From Eledone cirrhosa (Eukaryota), in NCBI GenBank assembly GCA_964016885.1, contig OZ024743.1, positions 238,266,001 to 238,330,000 on the forward strand: a stretch of DNA of 64,000 nucleotides, in the 5' to 3' direction. The notes beneath the pieces are model-generated. The model was given only the letters and a program-made list of their open reading frames with translations. It did not search any database and was not told the DNA's origin. A program made the translations under genes and the position numbers. Shown in pieces: positions 1 to 56,777 of this stretch; positions within the stretch are counted from its first letter, which is position 1, and every line of letters begins with the position of its first letter.

Positions 1-1290
1 CTATAAGGTTGACACTAGTAAAGAACGCTTAACTAAACATTACAACTTCTTCACATTGAAAGACCAAAAACCTGACCTTACAAACAGGCGTAGCACTATA
101 TTGATAAGGACAGTTAGGAAAGAATTAGAGAAACAGTACTAGCCTCTTATAGTAGGACAACACAACATCTGTCATATACTGGTTCATAGACATTTCCTCG
201 AAGAATAGGGCCAGGTTCTCGCAGTACGATATAATAGTTTTTACCTCTCTATCTATAGGCCCATTATAGACAAAATTTAAGACTCCCTCGTACTTTTGAG
301 TACACCAGGGACCAGTTTTCCAGGCCCGAAGATTATATGGGTTAAATTCAACCTAGAAGATTCATTAGACGTCTCGCTGATATCTGCGAACCGATTGGAT
401 TATGTATCCTTCATACACGTAAATGTAAATTCTCCACCAATTCGATGGCCTTTGCTTATCACATAATTGCAATGGCCACCCTCTAGACAGGTTCTGTAAG
501 GATTTAATAGAAGCCTTTGGCACACCAGGACTTAATATGACAATAGACATGAAACTTAATAACGTTAATTTCCTTGATGTGAACTTAGACTTAGCCCCAG
601 GTTATTAAAAACTAAACCCTAAATCTAAAGAAAAACTGAAATATATTAAAAGTGGTTCCTGCCACCCCCGTAGGTTTTAAAAATCTAGTCTCTAATATTT
701 TGATATAAGTCATAAGATTTCCAACCTTTCATCCACTAAGGAGATAAAAAGTTCTTGGGCCTGATATATAAGCATTTTCCCTCACAACATAGGTACAGTA
801 AACGTTTCAGTCGGCGTTCGGTGAAGATAAGCTATTCCTGCAGCTCCTTTATGAGATAAAAAATAGCTGCAAACAACAAGCTTGATGAACATCCAGGATG
901 CACTTACAGAATAAAGGAAGACTTTCCCCTGCAACAGAGTTGTAATGTTAAATCTATTGTATATGAGATTACATTTATCACTGCCGATTATGCAGAGAAC
1001 AGTGAAAGATATGTAGGTATGATACAAGATCGTTTTAAACAATGATCCTAGTGACATCGATCTTCCTTTAGGAATCTTAAACTGAAGACCAATACGGCTC
1101 TGGCGAAGAGTTTAAAAGTAAAAACATAAGATACAATTGAGAATCCGAAAGAGGTCCAGGTAATACATGAAAGGAACAAAAAGATATTCCGTCTTTCTTA
1201 GTGAAAAATGCAGAATTTTATAAGGTTTGAGTTGATTGACAAAATACCTGAACTCTGGATATGCGCTGTTTAAAGGCTGCGTACACCTCA
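1..1290 (+). pseudogene. Highly degenerate Penelope-like (Hydra-clade-like) RT-GIY-YIG remnant
   Basis: Broken frames give FTLKDQKPD, ADICEPIGL, NGHPLDRFCKDLIEAF..GLNMTID...NFLDVNLDL and PGCTYRIKEDFPLQQSCNVKSIVYE, colinear with the 9382 and 10049 ORFs. Confidence 0.8.
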
Positions 1291-2102: not shown

Positions 2103-2360
2103 ATATATATATATATATATATATATATGGAAAGTTATATTTAAAATTGTTGGGTTACAACTAGTAAATATTTATAACTGATATAAAAGCACTCGACAAA
2201 TATTTGGAGTATATTTACAATATTAAACAAATGGAAACTATATTTATAAAACCATATTTATTTCATTATATATATTTCAGGGATATCATATTAACAATAT
2301 GCTATGCCTTCCTCAGACAAAATACAATATAAACAGTTTTATAGATAAATAGATTCGACG

Positions 2361-3923: not shown

Positions 3924-3989
3924 TATTTTGTCTGAGGAAGGCATAGCATATTGTTAATATGATATCCTTGAAATATATATAATGAAATA
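3924..3989 (+). ncRNA. Minimal type I hammerhead ribozyme
   Basis: tattttgt CTGAGGA agg..cct GAAA tatata TA atgaaata. Stem I pairs, stem III is palindromic, and AATAAA follows. Confidence 0.8.
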
Positions 3990-4026
3990 AATATGGTTTT
4001 ATAAATATAGTTTCCATTTGTTTAAT

Positions 4027-4104
<78 letters not shown>

Positions 4105-4105
<1 letters not shown>

Positions 4106-4237
4106 CGAAGGAAATGTGGTAAGGAACCAGGTGGACCATAACGCACCAAAGTACTCAATACTTAGGGTAGTAGAGTGGGTAATAGGAACGAGTAGGACCC
4201 CAACGGCTGAGCTCAAGCCGTCGGGGTCCTACTCGTT

Positions 4238-4240
<3 letters not shown>
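4105..4240 (-). mobile_element. Family C fold-back element, copy 2
   Basis: Identical by eye to 1967-2102, including the junction and the arm mismatch. Confidence 0.85.
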
Positions 4241-4292
<52 letters not shown>

Positions 4293-13790: not shown

Positions 13791-13828
13791 ATACATATAT
13801 ATATATGTATATATATTTTATATACATA

Positions 13829-14253
13829 CGATATTAAACAAATGGAAACTATATTTATAAAACCATATTTATTTCATTATACATATTTCGGGGATACCAT
13901 ATTAAAAATATGGCATGCCATCTTCAGATAAAATACAATATATAAACAGTTTTATAAATAATTTTGACGTACCATAAATATTGAGCAACCGTTATGTAGG
14001 AAGGTTGCTCAATATTTATGGTACGTCAAAATTATTTATAAAACTGTTTATATATTGTATTTTATCTGAAGAAGGCATGCCATATTTTTAATATGGTATC
14101 CCCGAAATATGTATAATGAAATAAATATGGTTTTATAAATATAGTTTCCATTTGTTTAATATCGTATATCTACTCCAAAACTTGTCGAGTGCTTTATATC
14201 AGTTATAAAATATTTACTTGTTGTAACCCAACAATTTTAAATAAAACTTTTGC
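13829..14253 (+). mobile_element. Family A fold-back (pLTR + inverted pLTR only), HHR at 14058-14123
   Basis: 162-bp arms (13829-13990 and 14003-14164) with a 12-nt loop and an 89-nt tail. Core CTGAAGA..GAAA tatgta TA. Confidence 0.9.
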
Positions 14254-14666
14254 ATATATTTTATATACATATATATTTATGTATATGCACACCTCGTGTA
14301 TTTGTTTATTTTTATTTGTTTTTATTTTTCCCCTCCCCCTCTCACTTATCGTTGTCAACACGTTACTTTTATTTTTGACTTTGTAATTTTTGTTCTTATT
14401 CATTTATTAGTTCATGTATATGTATTTTGTCCATGCCTCTAGATACATATACACTTATGTGACAAAGTTACGTCTACGTACTTTTTAAGTATATGTGCGT
14501 GGTTGAGTGTGTGTATGTTTATATATTTATTGTTTTTATATTTATATATGTATTTTTCCTTTTTTCTCTTCTTCTTCTTCTCCCGTTGTTTCCTCAGCCT
14601 CACTTTCTTATTTCTTATATTTTGTTTTCAAATCCATATTTAATAAAAACACCATGTTTTATTCAT

Positions 14667-15177: not shown

Positions 15178-15297
15178 TCTGAGTTCAAATCCCGCCGAGG
15201 TTGACTTTGCCTTTCATCCTTACGGGGTCGATAAAATAAAGTACCAGTAATGTACTGGGTAATTGCTGGCCTTGTGCCTAAAGTAGAAACAATTATT
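15178..15297 (+). mobile_element. 5'-truncated SINE
   Basis: B-box gagttcaaatcc plus the core shared with 7023 and 61416. Confidence 0.8.
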
Positions 15298-15453
15298 TTT
15301 AATATATTGATATCTCTAAATCATAATATCTCTAACATTTACTGTACTTCCACTTTGTAAAAATGTTCTTATAATATATACGTATATAATTCTAATTTTT
15401 ACATTTTTAAATTTTTAATTTTTTAATAATTTTATAATTTTTTATTTTTATTT

Positions 15454-15489
<36 letters not shown>

Positions 15490-16844
15490 ATTTTTTTATT
15501 TTTTTTATTTTTTATTTTTTTTTTATTTTTTATTATTTTTTTATTTTTATTTTTTATTTTTTATTTTTTTTTTTTTTTTTTTTATTTTTTATTTTTTATT
15601 TTTTTTTTTTTTTTAAATTTTTATTTTTTATTTTTTATTTTTTATTTTTTATTTTTTATTTTTTATTTTACTTTTTTTTTTAAATTTTTTTTTTAATTTT
15701 TATTTATTTTTATTTTTTACTTTTTATTTTTTATTTTTTATTTTTTATTTTTTATTTTTTATTTTTTATTTTTTATTTTTATTTTTATTTAAGAAAAGTA
15801 TTTTTATTTATTTTTTCAAAATCTTCAAAATTTTTTCAAAATTTCAAAATTTTTTCAAAATTTTTTAATTTTTTAATTTTTTAGTTTTCTTAATTTCTTA
15901 ATTCTTAAGTCTTTATTAAATATAAAGACACCCTCAAAAGCCATTATTTAAATGAAGATAATAACCACTAACTGATTCTGGCTAAATGTATCTTAAGCAT
16001 CCATGCTTATTCTGACTAAATAGTCTCACACTAACGAATAAATAAAATCGGAGTTTATCTTTCCTTATCTTTCCTTTTCAATCATATAAATATTATTAAT
16101 TAACTCCGTTAATTTAATTTTAAATCATTCTCAATTTTAAAAACATATTCATTTACATAATATACGCATTTATTTATTTATTTATCTACATAAAACAGAA
16201 CAAAAACATCCCTCGTAACTCATATTATAAACAAATTATAAACAACTAATAATTGTAAATTATCCTTTTAATATAAATACACATACTATTAAAATATATA
16301 GTTACATATACATAGATAACTGTTCAAATATATTTCCCTCAAATTAACGTTATATGAGCTTTTCATTTATCTTTGCTTTTTTCCTTCTTCTCTCTCTCTT
16401 ACTATTTTTTCCTTCTTCTCTTCTCTCTCTTACTTTTTCCTTCTACTCTCTCTTACTATTATATATTATATATCTAAACTCTCCATAGTCGTTTAAATTA
16501 ACGGTTGTTTTTCAATTATTTACATATTCATTTGCATATTCACCCATAAGTTTGAAAAATCCATTATACATTTCCACTATCCAGGGAATATTCAACTAAG
16601 GTATGATTTTCCTGGGTATGTCTCAATCTATAAAACAAACTTTGTATTTTATCTGAAGAAAGCGTACCAAAGTGTTTTCGTGTCCTTGAAATATATATAA
16701 TGAAATAAATATGGTTTTATAAATATAGTTTACATTTATTTAATATCATTGAATATTTACTCCAGAAAGCTGTCGAGTGCTCTGAATCAGTTATAAACAT
16801 TTATATTTGTCAGATTTCCAACAAATTAAATATCCCTTCTACTT
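15298..16844 (+). mobile_element. PLE 3'UTR with (TTTTTTA)n tract and terminal HHR (16645-16707)
   Basis: tattttat CTGAAGA..GAAA tatata TA atgaaata, with a family A-like tail ending at (TA)n. Confidence 0.7.
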
Positions 16845-17725
16845 ATATATATATATAAATGAAGTAATTCCGTCGGAAACGTCCAGGAAAAAAGAGTGCT
16901 CTATGTAGGTAACAGAGCTTAATAGTTATGTAATAAACAACATAAGGCAATTATTCCATTTACCAGTGGTTTCTTAAAAGCAAAAAATTTTGCTTTCAAT
17001 CATCGGAATGAAAAAATCCTGGTCTGTTTATTGAATTTGGATTTTAAAAACAAAAATGCAATCTATATGAAAGTGAGGCTGGAGAAAGAAGGAGGAAAGG
17101 AAAAATATAATAAAAACACACATGCACCCCCCCCCACACACACGCACACACAAATGCATACATACACACACATATATATATATATATATGTATACATACA
17201 CTCTTACATACACACACATATACACATATATATGTGTATATAGATACACACATATACATACATATACACATACATACGCACATAAATATCAACACATCCA
17301 TACATATACATACATATATACAACCACACACACATATATACACATATATATATAGAGAAATATAAATATATATATATATATATATATACATATATATATG
17401 CATACACATACACATACATAGCCATACACACATACATATACATACATACATACATGCAGACAATCATACCTATATACACACGTACATACATACACATACA
17501 TATATGCATACAAATACGTACATATCACAAACACGCACAACCAAATCTTAGATAATTCATATGAACCTTATATAACTCCAAAATATACATATACATATAT
17601 ATAGTAATGTAATAAACAACATAAGGTAATTATTCCATTCACCAGAGGTTTCTTAAAAGCAAAAAATGTTTGCCTTCAATCATCAGAATGAAAAAAACCT
17701 GGTCTATCTACATATATATATATAT

Positions 17726-19464: not shown

Positions 19465-19515
<51 letters not shown>

Positions 19516-19518
<3 letters not shown>

Positions 19519-19871
19519 AAAGTTATATTTAAAATTGTTGGGTTACAACGAGTAAATATTTTATAACTGATATAAAAGCACTCAACAGATTTTGGAGTAT
19601 TTTACGATATAAAACAAATGGAAACTACATTTATAAAACCATATTTATTTTATTATATATATTTCAGGGATATCATATTAAAAATATGGTATGCCCTCAT
19701 ACCATATTGGAAGTTGTAAAATCCTAAGGTATGTCAAATTTATTTATAAAACTGTTTATATATTGTATTTTATCTGAAGAGGGCATACCATATTTTTAAT
19801 ATGATATCCCTCAAATATATATAATGAAATAAATATGGTTTTATAAATGTAGTTTCCATTTGTTTTATATC

Positions 19872-19872
<1 letters not shown>
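19516..19872 (-). mobile_element. Family A fold-back, third copy
   Basis: Long arm on the left; the short arm ends at atatcg|TA as in the other two copies. The plus-arm HHR has GAAA changed to CAAA. Confidence 0.85.
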
Positions 19873-19951
<79 letters not shown>

Positions 19952-21752: not shown

Positions 21753-22021
21753 TTATTGGAAATGTAAGCTATCACCGTATTTTGACTAAAGAAATTAAAG
21801 AAATTATTTAGCCTGATAGTGGGGTTAAGAACCCTCAGAGAAATGGAAAAAGATGAGTATTGATTTAACGTCAGTACTCATCTTTTTCCATTTCTCTGAG
21901 GGTTCTTAACCCCACTATCAGGCTAAATAATTTCTTTAATTTCTTTACTCAAAATACGGCGATAGCTTACATTTCTAATAATTTCAAACCAACTCGCTGC
22001 TTCGAAAATATTCTTACTTGA
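21753..22021 (+). mobile_element. Fold-back of the tRNA-headed family (truncated at the tRNA 3' end)
   Basis: ~110-bp arms (21753-21863 and 21871-21981) plus a 40-nt tail. Same body as 31904-32491. Confidence 0.85.
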
Positions 22022-23783: not shown

Positions 23784-25652
23784 AGTTGCATTTATCTTGC
23801 TTTATGTTCATACGAGTTATCACCAAGTCACAACCAGTGACCTCAAGAGACAACAAGGTCCGCCATGTTCAAGAAAGAACATACATATTCACACATGCAT
23901 CTTTAGTGTTTAGACTTGTGATGTATTTATATTGACAGAATCTTCCTTAGTATATGGGCAGTTCCCATTAGTACTATCTTTTGTATTTCTCCTATACGCG
24001 GGTTTCCTGGGATTTGCGATAAGTAATCATTAGACCCCTTAGGTATCATTCCCAGAGCGCCTACAACCACTGGTATTGTTTTAGTTCTCAATTTCCACAT
24101 TTTTCCAATTTCTATCTCCAGGTCCTTATACTTGCTCAATTTTTCAAATGTTTTTATAGATACATTCTTGTCTATTGGAACAGACATATCAATTAGCAGG
24201 CATACCCTCTTTTGAAAGTCTTTCAATATTATATCAGGTCTGTTTGCATCTATTTTTCGGTCTGTTTGGATGCTAAAGTTCCACAAGATTGAGATGTGAT
24301 CTTTTTCAAGTATGGGAGGTGGTTGATGCTCCCACCAATTCTTTTGATGGGGCAGGTCAAAATGCTTACACATTATCAAATGTATGTATTGTGCAGCTCT
24401 GTCATGCCTGTTTAGGTATTCGGTTGGAGCTATAGGACTGCACATTGAAATTATATGGTCAATGGTCTCTGGTTGTTTTTTGCATACACGGCATAATGGG
24501 CTGCACCCATTTTTTATTATGTTGGCTTGGTAATTTTTTGTTGGCAGACACTGATCTTGTGCTGATATAATCAGTCCTTCAGTCTCCGATTTCAGTCCAG
24601 AGGATGCCAACCACTGATGGGTTAAAGTTTTGTCAACATCAGGATTGTTAGCTCGCTCTGGGTATTTTCCATGCAGAGGCTTTTCTTGCCATTTCTTAGC
24701 CAGTTTCTGTAGCAGTTCTTTCTTTGCAGTTACTTTTACCTGCTTTGCTTTTTCTGTTTTCCATTTCAGCAGTAAATGGGACTTCTGAAATTTGTATTCC
24801 ATTACTGTATCTTTGTGCATCTTTTGTAATGGAATATGATCTTTTGATGCTTTCGTGTTTCAAAACGAGTTTGATCATCCAATCATGTGATTCCCTTAGA
24901 TATGTAGATAATCCAATTGTTGCAGTTTTCAACGCAATGTCTAACTGGATTAACCCACGTCCTCCTTCTTTCCTAGGGAGATATATTCTATCTATATCTG
25001 CCTTAGGGTGATGCATTCTGTGCATGGTTAAGAATTTTCGAATTTTTGTATCGAGCCTACGGATCTCTGTGCTTGACCAGTTGATGACATTGTAACTGTA
25101 GGTTACTACTGGTATGGCAAGCGTGTTTATGGCATCGATCCCATTCCTTGCATTCAATTCCGTTCTTAAGATTGCTCTTACTCTGCGGTAACATTTCTTC
25201 CTTATCCTTTCCCTCATTGTCGAGTGCTTGATTCCGAATCCTTCACAAACACCTAAATATTTGTAAGATTTTTCTTGATCAAGTTCTCTTATCACGTTCC
25301 CCCGATCAAGATTAATGTCTGAACTCTTCAGCAGCTTTCCTCTGGTGAACGTTGCTTTGGCGCATTTATCTAGTCCAAACTCCATTTTAATGTCATCACT
25401 GAACTGCTTCACAGTGGATAATAGCCCTTGCAATTGTTCATCATTTTTTGCAAATAGTTTCAGGTCATCCATGTAGAACAGGTGACTAATGGTTTTGTCA
25501 TAGACTTTATATCCATGTTTTGTTTCATTGAGCATTTTACTTAATGGTATAAGTGCGATGCAGAATAAAAGCGGTGATAAAGAGTCACCCTGAAAAATTC
25601 CACAATTAATATTAACTTCTCCAGCTTCCAGTGATTTTGTTTCACTATTCAA
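23783..25652 (-). mobile_element. R4/Dong-clade non-LTR retrotransposon, 5'-truncated, one frameshift (RT + CCHC + RLE)
   Basis: GIFQGDSLSP, YMDD, CRVC..ETIDHIISMC, RHD, NRPDI..IDMSVP..KLSKYKDL, IPVVVGALG. (TAA)n on both sides of its own strand, as known for Dong. Confidence 0.9.
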
Positions 25653-25884: not shown

Positions 25885-27868
25885 ATGTCTACTTCACCTC
25901 TGCACGAAGCAGCTGAAAGCCTTCCTCACAAAATAACACCTCACACCGACACCACCATTGTAAATGTTACTACGTTTGCCAACACAAAAAAAAATATAAG
26001 CAGTAGCAATATTTTAAATTTGTCTCAGGCAGACATTCATTTCCCGCCATTACCAATGACTGCAGGTGTTAAAGCCTCCACCACCACCACCACCGCGACA
26101 GCCACCACCACGACCACCACCGCGACAACAGAAACAAAAGAAGAAAAAATAAATTAACTCGTGATGTCGAAATGAAATCAAGCAAAATGGACTCTTCCCC
26201 ACCAAAGACGACTGACGTCACCACCACAACTGAAACTAAAATTAATATTAACGATAGCAACAACAACAACAATGACATTATAACCCCCCCCCCCCTCAGT
26301 TTCGCCAGAGTAGCAAAACAATTCGAAGCATTTACCGTAACTCAAGAAGATTTAGAAAATGCCAAACAAATGGTAAAGAAAGATGGGTACAGGGTCAGCC
26401 TCACCCCCCACCTAATAAAATGGAGCATCGGCGCCTATGCACCGTGTCGTATAGAACAATAAATGTAAAATCGCGCCGAGTGGAACGGGCATCCGAGTCC
26501 CAAATCCAAAAAGCTTTGGGACATGTGTGGGCAAGAAAAACCCACATCAGACGTGGGCAAAAGTATGGAACCGTGGATGTGTTCTTTGAAACACCAGAGG
26601 AGGCTAGAGAACACTCCATGGCCCCATTAAAAAGTGACGACTTCACACTCGTCCCAAGCTATTGTGGCCAGAGACTCGTAAAGATCAGGGTGACCCACGT
26701 TCCACCGGCCATCGAAATTCCCTGGCTAATAGTGGCTGTCCTCGCCCGCATCGAGGCCAACACGAAAATAATAACAATAGCAAAAGAAAAGCAGGAAAAC
26801 TGGCCCGGATCTGGGATGGAGCTCCTGATCCAAGCGGACCAAAAAAGCATTGAGGAGATCCCAGAGGTAATAGACCTCACTGACGGCAGCCACCTCACGG
26901 TAATTGTCGAGGGCAGAAGACCTAGGTGTGTCGTTTGGGGTGAAGGAACCCACCTAAGGGCTTTCTGCCCTCAGGCTAAAAGGTTGAGGCCACCTCTCCT
27001 ACCCACCCCAGTGACACAACCATCAACACCACCAGTAGCAGAGATGCCAGCAACAACTGTAGCAGCAACAACAGAAGCAACTATAACAGCAACAACCCCA
27101 GCAACAGTAGCAAAACCAACACCACTACCACCACCAGCAAAACCAACACCACCACCACCCAACGCTTCAGAACTAGCACCAGCGCCTACACCATCCACCA
27201 CACCACAACCAAAACTAACGGCTGTGGAGGATTTTCCACTCCCCGGCCTATCACAACTGGAGACAGATTGTGACGACGAGGAGTGGGAAACGATATCCGG
27301 AAAAAAAAAAAGAAACCAAAAAAGAAAACATTCTCTTCCTTCCCCCTCCAAAAACAAAATACAGAGGGAAACAAATAAACTAAGAAACAAAAAAGTTAGG
27401 ACAGATATTCCACCATCCACACCAGCATCACCAACCCCATCAACCCAAACACCAACACCATCACCATCATTAACTCCAACACCACCATCACCTACACCAC
27501 AAAAGTCACCAAAATGCGAAACAGAAACAAACCCACAACAAACGCAAACAAAACAAAACAACCAAAACGATACACACTACACAGCATTAAATTTGAACAA
27601 CAAGCAATTATTGCACTACATCCAACACAACACCAGCATCACAGAAAAAGACTACACAACAACCCCAAAATTCACACCACCTCCACACATACAAATCACT
27701 CGCATCACACAGAAAACGTACATGACACTAAAACAAAAATTCCCCAAAGACATCGGAGACTTCCGACAAGCACTCTCCAGGAGGATTTATAAGGACATCC
27801 TTCCTGAGGAGGCCACAAGCAGTGAAAAGGATGGAAAAACCGTCCTTCCCCTACGAGAAGTAAGGTAA
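25885..27868 (+). pseudogene. LINE ORF1 (RRM-like region, zinc knuckle, Pro/Thr-rich), frameshifted
   Basis: ORFs at 25885, 26172 and 26420. The knuckle CVVWGEGTHLRAFC is intact as CFRC..H..C in copy 2. Confidence 0.8.
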
Positions 27869-27902
27869 GTGGTCTTTCCCATCTTTTCCACTCCTTTTCA
27901 AC

Positions 27903-30900
27903 ATGACCTCACTCAGAATAGGCAGCATAAATGCGCGTGGCTTGGGGTCGTCATGGAAACAGGGCCACCTGCTCAACGACCTCAGGTCACTAAACATAGA
28001 TGTAGTGGCCATCAGCGAGACCAGAATCTCCGAAGCACAGGCTTTCGCACCGATCTTCGGCGGCTACGATGTGTACGCATCTCCCAGCCGTCCGGGATCG
28101 GGGGGAGGAGTTGCTGTGCTTTTTCGGAGAGGTTTGGATCTTGCCATACGGGCCATCTTCCTGGACCCAGAAGGTAAGTTGGTGGTGCTGGACGTGACCA
28201 GCGGAGACGGCCAAGCTTTCAGGTTAGTGGCCGTCTATGCCCCGACAGGAGCAGGGCGGCCTGATTTCTTCCGGCGTCTGGAGACCTTTCTTGGAACGTC
28301 CCGCTCTTTAGTATTAGTGGGCGACTGGAACGGGATCTTAGATGCACGCTGGGATTGTGTGGGATTAGTGGATAGGGAAGGAGGGTGCAAGAGTCTCACC
28401 AACCTGCTCAGACGTTTTGAACTGTCTGACAGGTACCGAATGGATTTCCCGAATGTACCAATGTGGACTTGGACAAATCGCATAGGGTCATCCAGATCAT
28501 ATCTAGATAGAGTATTTTGTAGGGAAATAGATAGGTCTAGCATAGGCTGTCCACAATTCAAGATAGTCAGCTACACGGACCACAAATTCGTGATCTGTGT
28601 GCTTGACTTAGATAGGCTTCATAGACAAGGACCCGGCTTCTGGAAGCTAAACGCGTCCTTACCAGCGCGGAAGGCCTACAGAGACCGGATTAGCGAACTA
28701 GTTAAGCGGGCGTTGACGGGGGCCATCGTCAACAACAAGTGGTGGTTTGCTCTGAAAAGAGCAATTAGAATAGAGTCCATTAGGTTTAGTAAGACTTTAG
28801 CAATAGAGAAAAATAGAGCAGAGGGAGAATTAGTTAGAAAATTAGATGAGGCGCTTAGCAAAGGCATCGCGACCGACGTACTTGCGGCGAAATTAGCCCT
28901 TGACCAATTCTTCAATGCAAAGCACGAAGGCTGCGTTGTCAGAGCTAGGGTGCGTGCTCTCAGACACGAGGGGACGAAAGCCGTTCAATGGGCCCGAGTG
29001 GCGGAGGCGCGTCGTGGCAACAAAGCCACGATCTGGTCTTTGGTGGACCACGACGGGCGCATGCTACTCGATCCCGGGCAAATGTGTGAAGCTTTTCAGC
29101 GACACTTCGCTCAACTGTTCGGGGGCAGTGGCGGGCCGGATCGAGGGATGGACTTTAGTGTCTACCTCGACGGACTGCCGCGGCTTTCGGCCACTGAGGC
29201 GGAGTGTTGCGAAAAGCCGATAACAACCGCTGAAGTACGGGATGCAATGACTAGTTGCACAAGGGGTAAATCGCCTGGTTTGGATGGTCTGCCCTATGAA
29301 CTTTACGTACAAATGCCAAACTTGTTCGGAGGCCTCTTGGCGGACGTCTACTGCAACTGGCAACAGAACGGGAGAATTCCCAGCTCTGTGAGCCGAGGAG
29401 CGGTGGCGCTGCTGAGAAAGGATCCGAACAAGGTGGATAACATAGATAATTTTAGGCCCATAACTCTGCTAAACACAGAGTTCAAGATTTTGGCCAAGGT
29501 GCTAGCAAAGAGGTTGGCGCTTGTCGTTGGTGGTCTGGTGGGAGAGGCACAGACATGCGCCATTCCCGACAGATCCATCCACGACAACCTCCACCTCATG
29601 CGATACATCGTAGAGAGGGTAGCTAGGGAACCTGGCACGGGTGGGTCTTTGATCAATTTAGATCAGTCGAAAGCCTTCGATAGGGTCGACCATCGTTACC
29701 TAGCGGCAGTCCTGAGGGCGGCTGGCTTTGGGCCCGTCTTCAGAGGCTGGATCGCTGCCATGCACAGCGACATCTGCTCTGTAGTGAGAGTGAACGGTCA
29801 CCTTTCGGAACCGTTCAACATCATGCGCTCGGTCCGCCAAGGATGTCCCCTCTCGTCCCTCTTGTACGTATTGACTCTCGAGCCATTACTGCACAAACTG
29901 GAGACGTTGAGGGGGATCCCGCGCGAACCAGGATGCGGAAGATCCGTGTCAGCATATGCGGACGATGTCACCTTAGTGGTGTCGAACGCCAAACAATCGA
30001 GGCGATCGGCACTACACTAAGAGAATACGAAGCGGTGACAGAAGCAATGATCAACCAGGAAAAGTCAGTGGGCCTGCAGCTCGGCACCTGGAGAGGCAGG
30101 TCCATGCCGTCCAACAGCGTCGTCGGGCGCTGGACGGACGGACCGGTTAAATTGCTAGGGGTCTGGTTCGGTCCAGACCTCCAGACGGACAAAAACTGGG
30201 ACGAGGTGACGAGCAGGGTGGCTTCTCTCACCCAGAAATGGGCCGAGAGGAAGCTATCCCTGAAAGGTCGAGCGGAGGTGGCGAATGCGTACATCGCATC
30301 CGTCATCTACTACCGCCTGACCGTCGTACCTTGTCCTAAGCCCCGCCTGACTGCGCTGGAGCGTTTGCTCTTTCGCTTCTTGTGGAAGGGACGCGCTCCG
30401 ATGGCCAGGCGGTCTATCTGCTGTCAACACCCGCTACGTGGAGGGCTGGGCATGCCGTGGCTGATGATGCGCAGACACGCGCTCAGGCTACGACATCTCC
30501 ACCTCTTCCTCGACGGTGATCAGGTGTGGTCGCCGTTTGCAAGACACGTTTTTCCCCAGCTCGTCTCCTTGACGGAGCTGCAGTCCTGGGTCAAGCGAAG
30601 ACCGAGAGGGAGCGCTTGGAGACTGTAATGTCTTCAGGCGCTCACAGCCCTCGACCAATCGGGCAATGTGATCGGTGGAAACTCCACCTTGGCGTTCTAT
30701 AGGGGATTAGTGGAGGGGAAGAGCGACGACGTACTTGGAGAAACTCTAGGCGTCGACGAAAATCAACTAGCCAATCTCTTCGGAAGGACTTTCAGGCCGG
30801 GGCCTATGGACAACTTCCAGAAATCCCTGGCCTGGCAGTGCTACCGAGGAGCTTTGCCAGTTCGGGATAAACTCTACAGGCATGGAGGTGCCGTCAGCCG

Positions 30901-31321
30901 GGCATGTCCGAGATGCGCGCAGGGCGACGAAACCGTCCTGCACGCACTCGTCCAGTGTCCGAGCATTGCTGACTTGTGGGTTTATGTCGAACACCTGCTG
31001 TCACGTGTAGGACGGATCCAGCTATCAGCTGAGTCCATCGTGAGGATTGCCCCGCCCCCTTCCTTTAGCCTGGAAGGGCAGGCAGTTTTTATCTGTCTGG
31101 TGGCCATGGCGAAAGAGATAGTATGGTGGACACGTTTGAAAGGGCTGAAGACGAGCACTTACCTCTTCGGTGATGCCCTGATTAACTTTTTCAAATTTCA
31201 TTTGAAAAGGAAAATCAGGGTAGAGAGGGAAGTGCTCTCTTCCCAGCATTTTGTTGAAAGATGGGTGAGAGAAGCAATTTTGGCCCGAATGAATGGGCCT
31301 TCTCTGAGTATGTGTCTGTAA
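27903..31321 (+). pseudogene. LINE ORF2 APE endonuclease / reverse transcriptase
   Basis: SINARGL, ISET, VYAP, GDWN, YLDR, TDH; KSPGLDGL, DQSKAFD, RQGCPLS, YADD; CPRC..H...C. One frameshift near 29995 and a stop at 30626. Confidence 0.92.
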
Positions 31322-31563
31322 ATTAAAGGTGGAAAACTGGGAGAGGGCACTTGCCCTGGTGGTCAGGGCCACTGTGGTCTTTTAATGGGCTTTCTCCACA
31401 AATGTCCCTTGGAAGTCTCCCCCCTATTGGGGAATTTTTCTTTGTTATTTTATTTCAACCTCTGTTTTTTTACACGCAGAAATGCCCATTTGTACCGTCC
31501 TGTATTGTCCTGTACTGTCCTTAATGTCTACTTTATGTGAACCCTTGTGGTTAATAAAGAAAA

Positions 31564-31595
<32 letters not shown>

Positions 31596-31729
31596 CTTAC
31601 ATTAAACTATAATTACACTCCTTATTCCTTACATTAAACTGCAACTATGTTGACACTCTTTAAATAATGTCTTCCTTGTGAAACTTGTGGTCTTGTTTTT
31701 CTTAACTAATGAATATATATATATATATA

Positions 31730-31887
31730 CACACAACAAAGAAGGTTGTTAAGATAACAGGTGGACCATAACGTACCAGAGTACTCTATACTTAGGGTAG
31801 TAGAGTCAGGACCCCGACGGCTGAGCTCCGCCGTTGAATCTAGCTGTCCAAACGGAGCTCAGCCGTTGGGGTTCTGACTATTTTCCT
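31730..31887 (-). mobile_element. Family C fold-back, copy 3
   Basis: Shared tail and hairpin with a different junction; TA-flanked. Confidence 0.8.
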
Positions 31888-32009
31888 ATATATATATATA
31901 TACATTAGAAATATAAGCTATCGCCGTATTTTGACTAAAGAAATTAAAGAAATTATTTAGCCTGATAGTGGGGTTAAGAACCCTCGGAGAAATGGAAAAA
32001 GATGAGTAT

Positions 32010-32080
32010 TGACGTACATGGGAGTCGAACCCACATCTGCGGTTATCCAGACCACTGTGCTACCATTACACCAACACATG
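32010..32080 (-). tRNA. tRNA-like cloverleaf (Gln-like D arm, loop CTGGATA), probably element-borne
   Basis: (G)ATGTGT TG GTGT AATGGTA GCAC A GTGGT CTGGATA ACCGC AGAT GTGGG TTCGACT CCCAT GTACGTC A. A and B boxes present; TTTTT 9 nt downstream. Confidence 0.7.
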
Positions 32081-32109
32081 TTGATGTGTTGGTATAATGG
32101 TAGCACAGC

Positions 32110-32344
32110 AAATGTTAGAGATATTATGATTTAGAGATATCAATATATTAAAAATAAAGTAGATGAGCTTGTTATGGAGATTAATAGGAATATTATAAGT
32201 ATAATTATAAGTTATATACAGTTCTGAATGTTGAATTCTGGCGATGTCTACAAGAATTAAATAAATTCGTTCTGAGATTAATAGAGTTTATACAGTTAAT
32301 TATATAAAAAATTTCATCAATACACAATTTACAGAATCTAAATA
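32110..32344 (-). pseudogene. PLE GIY-YIG C-terminus + start of 3'UTR
   Basis: FCKLCIDEIFYIINCINSINLRTNLFNSCRHRQN..*. 32110-32157 matches the reverse complement of 15293-15340. Confidence 0.8.
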
Positions 32345-32488
32345 CCATGTGCGTCAATACTCATCTTTTTCCATTTCTCCGAGGGTTCTTAACCCACTAT
32401 CAGGCTAAATAATTTCTTTAGTCAAAATACGGCGATAGCTTATATTTCTAATTTCACACTCGCTCGCTGTTTCGAAAATATTCTTGCT

Positions 32489-32520
<32 letters not shown>

Positions 32521-32527
<7 letters not shown>

Positions 32528-32976
32528 GAATATAAAATGAAAGTGCTTTTATAAAGGAATTTATTAGGTATTGACATATGTTTCTGTAACAGACGGAATA
32601 CCTATGTATCGCTGCTTGCGTAATCATATAATGTTAACAAGTATTCGATAGCAAATGTATAAGTTGTCACTTCTTCAGAGATATTGGATAAATTGAATTT
32701 ATCCAATATCTCTGAAGAAGTGACAACTGATTATACATTTGCTATCGAATACTTGCTAACATTATATGATTACGCAAGCAGCGATACATAGGTATTCCGT
32801 CTGTTACAGAAACATATGTCAATACCTAATAAATTCCTTTATAAAAGCACTCTCATTTTATATTCATCTTTTCTACATTTTCACCGGAATATAATTTATA
32901 CTCGTTGAGCAAACCTACACGTACGCTGTTCATCTCTAACGTGGCGATATATTATCACTACATTATTGATAACTTG

Positions 32977-32981
<5 letters not shown>
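32521..32981 (+). mobile_element. Family D fold-back with HHR at 32705-32825
   Basis: ~173-bp arms, 3-nt loop and 109-nt tail. CTGAAGA agtgaca..tgttaca GAAA catatg TC. Confidence 0.85.
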
Positions 32982-38904: not shown

Positions 38905-38907
<3 letters not shown>

Positions 38908-39053
38908 AAGGAAATGTGTTAAGGAACCAGGTGGACCATAACGCAACAAAGTACTCAATACTTAGGGTAGTAGAATGGGTAATAGGAACCAGTAAGACCC
39001 CGAATTAGCCGTCGAAACGGCTTGAGCTCAGCCGTCGGGGTCTTACTGGTTCC

Positions 39054-39054
<1 letters not shown>
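38905..39054 (-). mobile_element. Family C fold-back, copy 4
   Basis: Right arm reads GAAA cggct tgagctc agccg TC ggggtc (HHR stem III and cleavage triplet). Confidence 0.8.
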
Positions 39055-39089
<35 letters not shown>

Positions 39090-48421: not shown

Positions 48422-48777
48422 GAATGTTATGGTTGATGGAGGCTCGGCTCTGTAAGGTATTGTAAATTTTGACCGCTATAACAATTGTAAATTGTTTAAA
48501 ACTTTAACCAAATTGTAGACAAAAACACCCTCCTCCTCGTGAGAGGGGTCTTTCTGCCCATTATTTGGTCCTTCGGGGTTAAATAACCGCTTATTGGGGT
48601 TTTGTGCCCAATATTTATTTTAAACAAAAAAAACATAGCTACGAAAAAGAATTTTCATAGGTCACTCCCACTCATTCCGTCTTCTTCTTCCTCAATCGTC
48701 ACTACAGCAGAGAGAAGATTGTCTCTCTCCCCCCTTCTCTAAATTTCTCTCTCTCCCTCCCTTCTCTTTCGCAAGCG

Positions 48778-50777
48778 ATGCCAGTAAAGAAAAATCACGT
48801 GAAAAGCGTGCAACATTTCTCCACGACGACGACAACAGCGACGAAAAAGGTGTGCGGGAAATACGAAAACCCATTTCATTCGTCTGACGTCATGAATAAT
48901 AGCAGTAGCAGCCGTAATAACAGCAGCAGCAGCAACAGTGACGAGGAAAACAACAGTAGCAGCCGCAACAGAATCAGCAGTAGCATAAACAACAACAGCC
49001 TTAGCAGCAACAGCAACAACAACAGCAGCAGCAGCAGCAACAACAACAACAACCACAGCAACAGCGGCGGGGGCAGTAGTCGTAGTACCTGCAGCAACAA
49101 CAAAAGTAACAGCAGCTCTGACGACAACAACAGCAACAACAACAGCAGCAAAGAAAAACCAATCTCGTTTCCATGTATCGCAAAGAACCTGGAAACCATC
49201 CTCATAACAAATGAGGAATTACAGGAAGCGAAGAAGATGTTGACGAAAACCGGACACCGAGCAATCTGCAAGGCAGCCGAAAATTCTTTCGAAACCCAAC
49301 AGCACTGTACGGTCACGTACCGTACAGTAAGCACAAAATCCCGTAGGGTTGAAAGAGCCACAGAGGCTCAAATACAAAAAGCCTGAGGGTCTGTGTGGCA
49401 GCGGAAAACGCATATCACCCGAGGCAAGAAATATGCCACCGTAGACGTGCTTTTTACTACACCCCAGGAAGCAAAGGCTCAATCCTTAGTGACCCTAAGT
49501 AGCGAGGAAATGGTGTTGGTGCCCTCATACTGCGGGCAAAAAATTGTGAGGGTCAAACTGACCCACGTCCCCCCGGGATGGCCCCTTCTTGGCTGGCCGC
49601 GTCTGTCCTCGTCGGAATCGAGGACAAAACAACTGTACTGCAAGTACAGGAAAGAGTAAGAGAAGATTGGGTCGGCACCTCCATTGAGATGTTAATCCAA
49701 ACCAACCAGGAGTGCATCGAAGCTATGCCGGATGTGATAGACTTCGACAACGGTACTCAACTGCCCATAAGTGTTGAGGGCAAACGCCCGAAATGCTTTC
49801 GCTGTGGATCGAAGACTCACCTCAGGGCCTTCTGCAACGAGAAAACCCTGAGAAAGGAGAAAACCCCCCTCCTTCCGATACCGGCTCCACTGCTACTAGC
49901 AACAGGACAAGCGGCAACCAAGAACGATAGGTCCGTGGCACCCATACCCACGCCACGGAAATCAAGAACAGCAGCAGCAGTGGAAGTATTAACAACAACA
50001 ACAGTAATACCAACTGCAGCTCCAACAGAGACTCCACTGCAAACATCACCAACAACAACAAGTGAAAGAGTGGAGCTGGTACCCCTCCCTGACCTCACAG
50101 AATCAGACATGGAGTGTGAGGTGGGAGAGGGATGGCAAAAGGTCGCAAGAAGGCACAAACGCAGAAGCAGCGCATCGTCGCCTTCGAAAAGGGAGGAAAG
50201 AAATGAAAATAGGGTAAAGGCTACTGCAAAGAGACTCACAGCAGCAACACCACCAACACCATCACCACCCACACTAGCACCACCATCACCACCGGCGACA
50301 ACCCCACCGCCAACAACAACAACACCTTCAACACCACCACCACAAGCACCAACATTGCAAACACAACAAAACACACACATCCAGCAACAACGACAAGAAA
50401 ATAGCAGAACCACACCCCACACCCAGAAAAACAAATGCACGGCAATAAATACACACAACAAGAAACTAATGACTTACATAATTGAACACACAGACATTTC
50501 ACAGCACGAATACATAATACCAGCACCAATCAAAACACCAACGAACATAAGACTGGTAAAAATAGCACAGAAACAATATACAAACATTAAAACGAAATTC
50601 CCCAACGCAGTTGGTGATTTCAGAGACTCAGGAGGGACTCTCAACCGAAGAGTATATTCGGACATACTCATAGAAGAGCCGACGACCAGCCGAAGGGACG
50701 ATTCAACGGTCCCTTCACCAGACGATCAAGTGAAAAGGGATGGAGAAACCATCCTTCCTCTACGAAAAGTACGGTAA
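48778..50777 (+). pseudogene. LINE ORF1, disrupted
   Basis: CTVTYRTVSTKSRRVERA, THITRGKKYATVDV, CFRCGSKTHLRAFC knuckle. The start is uncertain. Confidence 0.8.
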
Positions 50778-50812
50778 GTGGTCTTTCCCATCTTTTCCAC
50801 TCCATTTTAAAC

Positions 50813-53800
50813 ATGACCTCACTCAGAATAGGCAGCATAAATGCGCCTGGCTTGGGTTCGTCATGGAAGCAGGGCGACCTGCTCAACGACCTCAGGTCAC
50901 TAAACATAGATGTAGTGGCCATCAGCGAGACCAGAATCTCCGAAGCACGGGCCTTCGCACTGAAGTCCGGCGGCTACGATGTGTACGCATCTCCCAGCCG
51001 TCCTGGATCGGGGGGGGGGGGGGAGTTGCTGTGCTTTTTCGGAGAGGTTTGGATCTCGCCATACGGACCATCTTCCTGGACCCAGAGGGTAAGTTGGTAG
51101 TGCTGGACGTGACCAGCGGAGACGGGCAAGCTTTCAGGCTAGTGGCCGTCTATGCCCCGACAGGAGCAGGGCGGCCTGATTTCTTCCGGCGTCTGGAGAC
51201 CTTTCTTGGAACGTCCCGCTCTTTAGTGTTAGTGGGCGACTGGAACGGGATCTTAGATGCACGCTGGGACTGTGTGGGATTAGCGGATAGGGGTGGAGGG
51301 TGCAAGAGCCTCACCAACCTGCTCAGGCGTTTTGAACTGTCTGACAGATACCGATTGGATTTCCCGAATGTGCCAATGTGGACTTGGACAAATCGCATAG
51401 GGTCATCCAGATCATTTCTAGATAGAGTATTTTGTAGGGAAATAGATAGGTCTAGCATAGGCTGTCCACAATTCAAGATAGTCAGCTACACGGACCACAA
51501 ATTCGTGATCTGTGTGCTTGACTTAGATAGGCTTCATAGACGAGAACCCGGCTACTGGAAGCTAAACGGTCCTTACCAGCGCGCAAGGCCTACAGAGACC
51601 GGATTAGCGAACTAGTTAAGCGGGCGTTGACGGGGGCCATCGTCAACAACAAGTGGTGGTTTGCTCTGAAAAGAGCGAATAGAATAGAATCCATTAGGTT
51701 TAGTAAGGCTTTAGCAATAGAGAAAAATAGAGCAGAGGGAGAACTAGTTAGAAAATTAGACGAGGCGCTTAGCAAAGGCATCGCGACCGACGTGCTTGCG
51801 GCGAAATTGGTCCTTGACCAATTCTTCAATGCAAAGCACGAAGGCTGCGTTGTCAGAGCTAGGATGCGTGCTCTCAGACACGAGGAGACAAAAGCCGTTC
51901 AATGGGCCCGAGTGACGGAGGCGCGTCGTGGCAACAAAGCCACGATCCGGTCTTTGGTGGACCACGACGGGCGCATGCTACTCGATCCCGGGCAAATGTG
52001 TGAAGCTTTTCAGCGACACTTCGCTCAGCTGTTCGGGGGTAGCGGCGGGCCGGGTCGAGGGATCGACTTTAGTTTCTACCTCGACGGACTGCCGCGGCTC
52101 TCGGCCACTGAGGCGGAGTGTTGCGAAAAGCCGATAACAGCCGCTGAAGTACGGGAGGCAATGACTGGCTGCACAAGGGGTAAATCGCCTGGTTTGGATG
52201 GTCTGCCCTATGAACTTTACGTACAGATGCCAGACTTGTTCGGAGGCCTCTTGGCGGACGTCTACTGCAACTGGCAACAGAACGGTAAAATTCCCAGTTC
52301 TGTGAGCCGAGGAGCGGTGGCACTGCTGAGAATGGATCCGAACAAGGGGGATAACATAGATAATTTCAGGCCCATAACTCTGCTAAACACAGAGTTCAAG
52401 ATTTTGGCCAAGGTGCTAGCAAAGATCCATCCACGACAACCTCCACCTCATGCGATACATCGTAGAGAGGTTAGCTAGGAAACCTGGCATGGGCGGGTCT
52501 TTGATAAATTTAGATCAGTCGAAAGCTTTCGATACGGTCGACCATCGTTACCTAGCGGCAGTCCTGAGGGCGGCTGGCTTTGGGCCCGTCTTCAGAGGCT
52601 GGATCTCTGCCATGCACAGCGACATCTGCTCTGTGGTGAGAGTGAACGGTCACCTTTCGGAACCGTTCAATATCATGTGCTCGGTCCGCCAAGGATGTCT
52701 CCTCTCGTCCCTCTTGTACGTATTGACTCTCGAGCCATTACTGCACAAACTGGAGACCTTGAGGGGCGTCCCGCGCGAACTAGGATGCGGAAGATCCGTG
52801 TCAGCATATGCGGCCGATGTCACCGTAGTGGTGTCGAACGCCAAACACATCGAGGCGATCTGCACTACACTAAGAGAATACGAAGCGGTGACAGGAGCAA
52901 TGATCATCCAGGAAAAGTCAGTGGGCCTGCAGCTCGGCACCTGGAGAGGCAGGTCCATGCCGTCCAACAGCTTCGTCGGACGCTGGACGGACGGACCGGT
53001 TAAATTGCTAGGGCTCTGGTTCGGTTCGGACCTCCAGACGGACAAAAACTGGGACGAGGTGACGAGCAGGATGGCTTCTCTCACCCAGAAATGGGCGGAG
53101 AGGAAGCTATCCCTGAAAGGTCGAGCGGAGGTGGCTAACGCGTACATCGCGTCTGTCATCTGCTACCGCCTGACCGTCGTACCTTGTCCTAAGCCTCGCC
53201 TGACTGCGCTGGAGCGTTTGCTCTTTCGCTTTTTGTGGAAGGGACGCGCCCCGATGGTCTGGCTGTCCATCTGTTGTCAACACCCGCTACGTGGAGGGCT
53301 GGGCATGCCGTGGCTGATGATGCGCAGGCACACGCTCAGGCTACGACATCTCCACCTCTTCCTCGACGGTGATCAGGTGTGGTCGCCGTTTGCTAGACAC
53401 GTATTTCCCCAGCTCGTTTCCTTGATGGAGCTGCAGTTCTGGGTCAAGCGAAGACCGAGAGGGAGCACCTGGAGACTGGAATGTCTTCAGGCGCTCACAG
53501 CCCTCGACCAATCGGGCAATGTGATTGGTGGAAATTCCACCTCGGCGTTCTATAGAGGATTAGTGGAGGGGAAGAGCGACGACGTACTTGGGGAAACTCT
53601 AGGCGTCGACGAAAATCAACTAGCCAATCTCTTCGGAAGAACTTTCGGGCCGGGGCCTATGGACAACTTCCAGAAATATCTGGCCTGGCAGTGCTACCGA
53701 GGAGCCTTGCCAGTTCGGGATAAACTCTACAGGCATGGAGGTGCCGTCAGCCGGGAATGTCCGAGATGCGCGCAGGGCGACGAAACCCTACTGCACGCAC

Positions 53801-54155
53801 TCGTCCAGTGTCCGAAAATTGCTGACTCGTGGGTTTATGTCGAACACCTGCTGTCGCGTTTAGGACGGATCCCGCTATCATCTGAGTCCATCGTGAGGAT
53901 TGCCCCGCCCTCCTCCTTTAGCCGGGAAGGGCAGGAATTTTTTATCTGTCTGGTGGCCATGGCGAAAGAGATAGTATGGTGGACGCGTTTGAAAGGGCTG
54001 AAGACGAGCACTTACCTCTTCGGTGATGCCCTGATTGAGTTTTTCAAATTTCATTTGAAAAGGAAAATCAGAGTAGAGAGCATTTTGTTGAAAGATGGGT
54101 GAGAGAAGCAAGAATGGCCCGAGTGAATGGGCCTACTCTGAGTATATATCTGTAA
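50813..54155 (+). pseudogene. LINE ORF2 APE-RT, disrupted
   Basis: Frameshifts, a ~60-bp deletion near 52424, and YADD changed to YAAD. Confidence 0.9.
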
Positions 54156-54435
54156 ATTAAAGGTGGAAAACTGGGAAAGCGCACTTGCCTTGGTGGTCAG
54201 GGTCACTGTGGCCTTTTACTGGGCTTTCTCCACAAATGTCCCTCCGAAGTCTCCCCTCTATTGAGGAATTTTTCATTGTTATTTTTTGTTACATCCTCTG
54301 TTTTTGTTTTTTACACGCAGAAATGCCCATTTGTACCGTCCTGCATTGTCCTGCACTTTTCTTAATGTCTACTTTATGTAAACCCTTGTGGTTAATAAAG
54401 AAATCATTATTATTATTATTATTATTATTGTTATT

Positions 54436-54749
54436 CCTTGAATCTCAGTCATTGATGTTGGTTAACTGGAAAGTCCGTTGGATTGAATATCAAGCCACTA
54501 CCTGCAGCCTCAGATATTCAGGACGTATCGGAGGGTTCTTGCTGTTCCAAGCAAGCATGCCTTTTGAAGCGTTCCAAAAAGCGTGAAGGGGCCGATTTTC
54601 TTTAACCATCCCTGGAAACCTTTGGAGATAGTCCCCAGTGCGCCTATGACAATCGGGATCACTTTGACTTCATGGCAGTTCCAAATCCTTTTCACCTCCC
54701 ACTTTAGGTCCTGGTATCGGTTAATTTTCTCCCTCTCCTTCTCTTGCAC

Positions 54750-55964: not shown

Positions 55965-56146
55965 CAGATAGAGTGTTGTAAAAAAAACAGATGGACCACA
56001 ACACACCAGAGTACTTGGGGTAGTAGAGTGGGCCATATGAAAAGATTCAGGACCCCGACGGCTAAGCTCAGGCCATTTCTACAGCTAAATCCAAACTCGG
56101 ATCTAGCTGTCGAAATGGCCGGAGCTCAACTGTCGGGGTCCTGAAT

Positions 56147-56150
<4 letters not shown>
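55965..56150 (-). mobile_element. Family C-related fold-back, copy 5
   Basis: Both arms carry tagctgt.GAAA tggcc..g TC ggggtcctgaatcttt. Confidence 0.8.

Positions 56151-56777
<627 letters not shown>

Follow-up and report, generated by a model that had tools for sequence, protein, structure and literature searches.

The described systems closest to the repeat family analysed here are the non-LTR retrozymes of metazoans, the SINE-like hammerhead repeats of schistosomes, and Cassandra and Helenus. As described in the accessible parts of PMC7229834 and bioRxiv 10.64898/2026.07.22.740005, non-LTR retrozymes are non-coding units of 170-400 nt that occur as dispersed monomers, tandems and long arrays and are proposed to be non-autonomous partners of Penelope-like elements (PLEs); the present family is like them in both respects. 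They are defined by a type I hammerhead, however, whereas this family has none and carries a tRNA cloverleaf instead, and, unlike them, it shows the use of PLE functions in the insertion ends themselves. The schistosome repeats likewise have a Pol III promoter inside a tandem unit, tandems being needed for their propagation; they self-cleave by a hammerhead, and PLE-type tails or fold-backs are not described for them in the accessible text of the review (PMC6765202). TRIMp3 elements (Cassandra, Helenus, Ajax) also hold a Pol III promoter derived from a small RNA within the repeat of a non-autonomous retroelement, but belong to the LTR class, with PBS, PPT and target-site duplications; the tRNA family is their PLE counterpart (PMC10886601, accessible part). 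Somewhat further away, the MRC1 element of Chlamys is a non-autonomous, head-to-tail, pLTR-forming PLE partner from a clade mostly without canonical hammerheads. PLEs of this type have 3′ sequence in common with their partners, and the accessible portion of the source (PMC8557442) mentions no tRNA in them, whereas no sequence-sharing partner of the tRNA family was found among 110 PLE loci. Finally, tRNA-derived SINEs have in common with the family a tRNA-like part with A and B boxes, small size, lack of coding capacity and high copy number. Unlike in SINEs, the tRNA here is internal to a tandem unit and followed by a run of five Ts (T5), there is no LINE tail and the ends are of PLE type.

A study of octopus repeats counts 893 recently active SINE families as unclassified (PMC13282606, accessible part). 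The unit motif is absent from one supplement of that study and from the other literature and supplements searched. No published tRNA-bearing, hammerhead-free element with PLE ends was found in a literature search conducted outside Repbase, Dfam, SINEBase and most subscription journals, so that the family may be catalogued under another label; nor did the search yield published work joining Penelope-like elements, RNase P and tRNA-like structure.

The locus and its repeat family

The window is a 64,000-nucleotide stretch of Eledone cirrhosa DNA. Within it, the 588-bp locus at 31904-32491 is one copy of a non-coding repeat family whose coordinates are given below with tRNA base 1 as unit position 1 (Table 1). 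ARAGORN and Rfam agree on the complete cloverleaf with A and B boxes seen in the original prediction, the former calling it Ser(GGA), the latter scoring it at 42.5 bits against RF00005 (cut-off 29). The centre was also read correctly, as a re-copied tRNA 5′ end plus the end of a PLE endonuclease and its 3′ UTR, the latter piece measuring 236 rather than 235 bp; its frame reads C-K-L-C..E..N..C-R-H, then stop. The layout proposed for the element, a tRNA heading a body of ~110 nt and a tail of ~40 nt, holds for the lengths (106-nt body, 39-nt tail) but not for the head: the tRNA resembles a 5′ head in this copy only through truncation, and in the family it lies inside a tandem unit, preceded by a 51-nt leader. 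T5 occurs 10 nt past the cloverleaf. The second copy was said to have the same arm boundaries; this is true of both outer ends, which are identical, but its inner stops lie at tRNA positions 65-69, leaving the tRNA almost wholly missing. The original prediction did not include the leader, the head-to-tail unit, the satellite or the predicted leader-trailer helix.

Table 1. Features of the two fold-back copies (window positions).
Feature	Position	Strand	Remarks
Left (TA)n target run	31887..31902	.	Common to the adjoining fold-back of another family (31720-31886)
Left arm, body (unit positions 72-177)	31904..32009	-	31904 is the family's "short" 3′ end
Left arm, whole (body and tRNA-like domain)	31904-32080	-	Short end
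T5 run (positions 81-85)	31996..32000	-	Pol III terminator-like; in tandem units, part of the predicted leader-trailer helix
tRNA-like cloverleaf, anticodon GGA, without long variable arm	32010..32080	-	ARAGORN, Rfam
A box; B box	32063-32073; 32021-32030	-	In cloverleaf 32010-32080
Inverted re-copy of tRNA positions 1-26	32083..32108	+	Fold-back at tRNA 5′ end
Captured piece of a separate hammerhead-bearing PLE family	32109..32344	-	Endonuclease C-terminus and 3′ UTR start
Endonuclease C-terminus in captured piece	about 32208-32344	-	CxxC..E..N..CxH, as described for Hydra
Right arm (positions 60-177)	32345..32452	+	Ends at the family's T-arm hot spot
39-nt tail (positions 178-216)	32453..32491	+	Reaches the family's "long" 3′ end
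Right (TA)n target run	32492..32521	.	Read from sequence
Second independent fold-back, same family	21753..22021	.	Both arms end at positions 65-69
Arms of second copy	left 21753-21863; right 21868-22021		Left, short end; right, long end

The genome searched comprises 3.0 Gb in 1,796 contigs. A 25-mer from the body has 1,772 exact matches (none for the reversed control), a tRNA 24-mer 1,364 and a leader 20-mer 354. An unbiased set was drawn from the first 100 body 25-mer matches on contig C1, which correspond to 83 insertions after merging 17 paired matches. A first genome search had been biased to fold-backs at the tRNA start; its 30 loci were excluded from the end statistics and retained in the junction listing and the pair counts. 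The unit spans 267-290 nt in the order leader, tRNA-like domain, trailer with T5, body and tail. In tandem copies the tail abuts the leader of the next unit with no spacer. Genome-wide tandem abundance, expressed in tail-leader junctions rather than dimers, amounts to 199 exact junctions; 15 of the 83 unbiased loci read through such a junction, and one array (L383) has 10 head-to-tail units. There are at least three subfamilies, which have tRNA and trailer in common and diverge in body, tail and leader, individual copies differing by 2-6% from their subfamily majority. The tRNA is present in every subfamily, which disposes of the possibility that it is a chance insertion.

Subfamily B also forms a satellite. 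Its 290-nt unit repeats on one strand of contig C28 from 19,440,624 unbroken to 19,600,000 (at least 160 kb), is found in all six samples taken up to 19,702,000 (L364-L373, L385-L396), and is gone at 19,730,001. The units are ~95% alike, with higher-order patterns, and vary more in the tRNA part than elsewhere. The array was considered as the donor of the dispersed B copies and rejected: two variants present in 12/12 printed array units occur in 0/21 dispersed B copies. Because these array-specific variants are missing from all 21, the satellite looks like a product rather than a source. Two other arrays were encountered. In a ~7.2-kb tandem repeat (G000:C2:314,530,199-314,622,773; L374, L375) each unit contains the same tRNA-family insertion, duplicated after insertion. 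L165 (G000:C1:131,459,450-131,462,469) is an older mixed array with further tRNA-like variants (purine after the anticodon, canonical T loop).

The window is rich in other repeats. Another TA-targeting fold-back family, with ends ~80 nt apart, is found at 31720-31886, 1964-2103, 4102-4241, 38905-39060 and 55966-56150; it has no tRNA and no hammerhead core in a regex scan, and is often found beside the tRNA family within one TA run. A further, SINE-like short repeat containing a B-box-like motif (window 7023-7121 and 15178-15298; L125:1569-1712; L156:1068-1251) is inserted into PLE copies and into a tRNA-family unit. Two LINE copies, 93-95% identical, carry endonuclease and RT frames (26276-31598, 48661-54439), and a broken RT fragment of another LINE type lies at 23927-25652.

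Insertion ends and the Penelope-type signature

According to the accessible part of PMC8557442, PLE insertions have a tail of 30-40 bp on one side, contain a truncated copy in inverted orientation, form partial tandems and are biased towards TA. The tail is produced by two internal RT starts, shown in vitro for an anole PLE (PMC11167929, accessible part). The 83 unbiased insertions conform to this description. Their outer ends lie at about position 177 or at 212-216, ~38-40 nt apart, and (TA)n adjoins 113 of 129. Among 46 two-sided insertions, 40 pair a long with a short end, three are short/short (two of these being long arms with a mutated tail), one is long/long and two run into the leader; the long-plus-short excess (40/44) departs sharply from a 50:50 expectation (p=9e-9). 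The 3′ ends point outward in the arms of 54 of the 83 loci, and an outer tail-to-tail order is seen in none. On the 5′ side, arms are limited mostly at the T-arm (44/65), just upstream of tRNA base 1, or within the previous unit. Equal geometry is displayed by a hammerhead-bearing PLE family of the same genome (ends 89 nt apart) and by an inverted Neptune-type ORF pair (L284; 60 nt apart). The one-sided tail, the 5′-truncated inverted copy, the partial tandems and the (TA)n target are thus all present, and mobilisation of PLE type of a non-autonomous tRNA-bearing unit is, in our judgement, very probable. What the original prediction had read at two loci, (TA)n targets, outward 3′ ends and one short plus one tailed arm, is a property of the family as a whole.

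Also as predicted, no hammerhead core was found in either arm of the locus. No intact hammerhead exists on either strand of the unit, and Rfam detected none in nine loci with tandem or older copies, although Rfam likewise failed to detect the minimal hammerheads that sister families have in the window. Subfamily C comes one base short of a core (CUGAGGG plus GAAA) in 18 of 150 copies and has the full core in 3 of 150, with stem I absent; the resemblance is chance or a relic. The locus is adjoined on its right, at window positions 32521-32980, by a fold-back from yet another family, in which a hammerhead-like core surrounds a long stem II and the tail measures ~100 nt.

The tRNA-like domain, its 5′ ends and T5

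The longest arm of a locus, if it reaches position 69, stops in the T-arm (55-69) in 44 of 65 cases. This amounts to an arm-stop rate of 6.6% per nt, versus 0.13% at 17-54 and 0.63% at 70-83. Stops at 55-69 also occur in 19 of 36 loci with a single anchored arm, and fold-back joints at the same site are present in the contigs of one DNA sample, which may be the assembly's own. The pattern fits RT arrest at a folded T-arm or at a methylated equivalent of A58, which we take to be position 56, a methylation candidate. The stall is no proof of tRNA folding, since the site contains CATG/GTAC palindromes and is (TA)n-like, and since the hammerhead-bearing PLE family also has a fold-back hot spot.

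The 5′ ends beyond the T-arm were analysed in 75 loci selected by the tRNA motif, three internally deleted arms and the B arms with a short reference leader having been reassigned by their flanks. Arms end at 4..16 in 9 loci, at -9..+3 in 18 and at -54..-10 in 6, and enter the previous unit in 42. The -9..+3 peak (2.1% per nt vs 0.28% in the leader) is a 7-fold excess (p=1e-11). Eleven of its 18 ends are located 1-9 nt upstream of base 1 and keep leader bases, often to -3, sometimes preceded by a non-matching base; the other seven fall at 0..+3. The upstream ends are therefore not RNase P products cut at base 1, whereas a Pol III start a few bases upstream could yield them. Ends of the RNase Z type are rare (3 of 140 arms at 71-73), and leader-trailer joins without tRNA, as expected of tRNA-less processed copies, number zero genome-wide. 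On these three counts, the suggestion that TTTTT favours RNase P/Z processing was not borne out. Some copies do start at the tRNA 5′ end, as had been asked of the family, but most stop at the T-arm or run upstream; the 42 loci that continue through the 51-nt leader to the previous unit depart from the SINE pattern of a head at the 5′ end. Templates longer than one unit account for 42/75 tRNA-selected loci and for 15/19 body-selected loci passing the tRNA; Pol III monomers are therefore not the main template.

All subfamilies retain T5 (positions 81-85), which in subfamily A constitutes the unit's main long run of Ts. Five Ts are expected to stop animal Pol III, and their conservation ten bases past the cloverleaf makes a plain Pol III route awkward. 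The leader segment -17..0 is complementary to 74-91 and would extend the acceptor stem by a predicted 18 bp across a 3-nt bulge. In 25 copies, 94% of helix cells are paired; for the structure as a whole the value is ~92% (91.8%), versus 40-60% in slid controls. At leader positions -8 and -9, which face U, A and G replace one another (one or the other in 107 and 100 of 105-106 copies). Two-sided covariation is confined to 3 cells, the unit folds no better than its shuffles (z -0.53), and the helix could descend from one old fold-back event. If it is real, either T5 may be retained because it pairs in multimeric RNA, or the helix may turn a dimer's second T5 into the true stop, by analogy with the Cassandra transcript, which starts in one repeat and stops in the next (PMC10886601, accessible part).

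Conservation of the domain was assessed by comparing subfamily majorities. Between A2 and C, tRNA plus trailer differ in 1/91 columns and the rest in 25/145 (p=3e-5); with the search motif removed, 0/67 tRNA-plus-trailer columns differ. Between A2 and B the figures are 6/91 vs 26/146 (p=0.018; p=0.059 without the motif). The test is biased, as a tRNA motif had served to pick out most copies of B and C. Variation among 573 units of the C28 satellite is greatest in the tRNA (5.1%; leader and trailer, ~1%), suggesting that conservation of the tRNA tracks retroposition and not the array. Decoding appears unlikely, given a GGA anticodon without a long variable arm and altered loop bases: the U33 equivalent is C in 18 of 37 copies, the position 37 equivalent is T in 37 of 38, and the first anticodon-stem pair is open in 25 of 25 aligned copies. 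In the search for a source tRNA gene, a motif with canonical T loop gave 22 matches, of which all that were examined belong to the family. Matches to phage tRNAs, at best 88.6% over 44 nt, were generic and were dropped.

Judging from these sequence patterns, the non-coding 267-290-nt tandem unit is probably copied in trans by a PLE RT-endonuclease, with the tRNA as its internal Pol III promoter; serving as that promoter is also the probable main role of the tRNA-like domain. The element would likely be a SINE-like parasite of Penelope elements. Of the two identities originally offered for it, the PLE-dependent SINE thus survives as the best reading, with PLE-type ends throughout the family and no ORF. 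The PLE enzyme would nick (TA)n on both strands and reverse transcription would begin at two internal RNA sites, about 177 and 212-216, as for the anole PLE in vitro; the far ends of the two cDNAs would then be joined via short matches. RT would usually halt at the folded T-arm, perhaps at the methylated A58 equivalent. Part of the templates would begin 3-7 nt upstream of the cloverleaf, at a Pol III start, and read through the first T5; others would be multimers from tandem arrays, giving rise to new tandem copies able to serve as sources.

A more tentative possibility is a retrozyme-like lineage in which the hammerhead has been replaced by a tRNA mimic seated on the 18-bp helix and acting as a switch, so that host tRNA machinery would set the RNA ends for the Penelope enzyme. 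Under such a model, equally tentative, the ends could be fixed where Pol III starts, by termination under certain conditions at the paired T5, or through cutting of the RNase P type, and the family would represent a third, PLE-dependent class of small-RNA-derived parasites beside SINEs and TRIMp3.

Replacement of the hammerhead by outright processing, with host RNase P and/or RNase Z cutting multimers of the PLE-mobilised RNA to monomers as hammerheads do in retrozymes, possibly with circularisation, strikes us as improbable. Unit size, tandem arrays and satellite do agree with non-LTR retrozymes (PMC7229834, accessible part), the tRNA sits upstream of the RT starts, where sister PLEs have their hammerhead, and the full cloverleaf has been kept rather than the boxes alone. 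Seven of the 18 ends near the tRNA start are compatible with such cutting, T5 is awkward for a plain Pol III route, and the near-core of subfamily C could be a relic. Yet that relic has neither stem I nor an Rfam match, the 11 upstream ends are impossible for an RNase P product, the 3′ counterparts and the tRNA-less joins are rare or missing as described above, and the predicted helix would bury both cut sites.

We are likewise sceptical of a scheme in which Pol II, reading through tandem arrays, supplies the templates of a PLE-mobilised unit, with tRNA domain and helix only folding, stabilising or localising the RNA, or with the domain being a captured tRNA gene that makes a short, non-functional, T5-ended RNA. 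Entry into the previous unit by most tRNA-passing arms speaks for it, as do the conserved T5 and the A/G-only changes at -8 and -9 opposite U. Against this, A-G changes are the commonest kind anyway, the helix possibly stems from one fold-back, and both the sharp 5′-end excess at -9..+3 and the intact A and B boxes are left unexplained.

The captured piece, the partner search and significance

The PLE family from which the 236-bp piece derives is abundant, with copies 92-95% alike, and has its own long 3′ UTR, minimal hammerhead and ends. Its motifs (upstream CxCx5C linker; CxxC..E..N..CxH) fit the Hydra clade as described. At the left junction of the piece, 6 of 7 nt are common to unit and PLE, and on the left-cDNA strand the piece lies in antisense orientation. 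In view of both features, a switch onto PLE mRNA would be the simplest account, and the original proposal of template switching by a PLE RT fits; capture from DNA during repair is possible too. The left cDNA probably extended to the 5′ end of the RNA and turned back on itself over 26 nt; it would then have switched to mRNA from an unrelated Hydra-type PLE, copying 236 nt of it. A single capture event does not name the partner PLE. The piece was considered as the element's own ORF and this was rejected, the unit occurring within 1.5 kb in 0 of 29 other loci of the captured family. It is a one-off from a separate hammerhead-bearing, Hydra-type family.

A search for the partner, using a 13-copy family profile against 110 PLE-bearing loci (a small part of 10,596 GIY-YIG candidates), found only the window's own copies. 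The Neptune-, Poseidon- and Hydra-type 3′ ends inspected showed no unit match and no comparable tRNA, and a protein search and Pfam scan gave nothing further. PLEs seen in the genome have differing tail lengths, 60-95 nt, vs ~38-40 in the tRNA family. Hydra-type PLE 3′ ends with minimal type I hammerheads and 89-95-nt tails are located at window positions 2130-2360, 3889-4031, 13826-14270, 16620-16860, 19490-19880 and 56210-56550 (also L211-L240). A 28-mer of the Hydra-type 3′ end has 4,821 exact matches; insertions extend beyond the point of hammerhead cleavage and have a preferred site of fold-back. Neptune-type PLEs (L271, L273, L274, L276, L284, L287) have frames to 938-1,096 codons, in inverted or tandem arrangement with (TA)n ends, several without a hammerhead core from the stop codon to the first TA run.

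The other identity originally offered, an autonomous PLE lineage with a tRNA mimic in place of the hammerhead in its pseudo-LTR, is very improbable. It has in its favour that in the locus the end of a PLE endonuclease precedes the tRNA, both being on one strand, and that partial tandems resemble pLTRs. However, no copy among the loci examined runs into a PLE ORF, the extension that had been looked for, and in every locus read the leader is preceded by another unit's tail or by the truncation point; the captured piece is the only one among the scanned loci, and its family has its own hammerhead and ends. Mobilisation as an ordinary LINE-dependent SINE (later a satellite, with inversion by twin priming) or as a MITE is already largely refuted and highly unlikely: despite the tRNA-like part with A and B boxes, the existence of SINE-derived satellites (PMC10702118, accessible part) and LINE remnants within the window, both readings fail because centres vary, ends are unequal and the same 3′ region is duplicated in both arms, where a MITE would have fixed terminal inverted repeats and constant size, and where single-arm SINEs with LINE tails and target-site duplications would differ from the two fixed 3′ ends seen here, which abut (TA)n without a poly(A) or repeat tail of their own (target-site duplications being unreadable inside a TA run), in arms of variable length and mostly in copies without head.

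SINEs are known as LINE partners and TRIMp3 as LTR partners, whereas PLE mobilisation of small non-coding units has been argued mainly from shared hammerheads. In the tRNA family, which has no hammerhead, the insertion ends themselves display the PLE signature. For an in vitro PLE assay, the unit offers a natural substrate of 270 nt in which two RT start sites are mapped. Repeat libraries, we predict, contain families of this kind under the wrong label, as SINEs, MITEs or tRNA genes. The family bears on the need for a hammerhead in PLE-type spread, and ties a retroposed unit to a large satellite.
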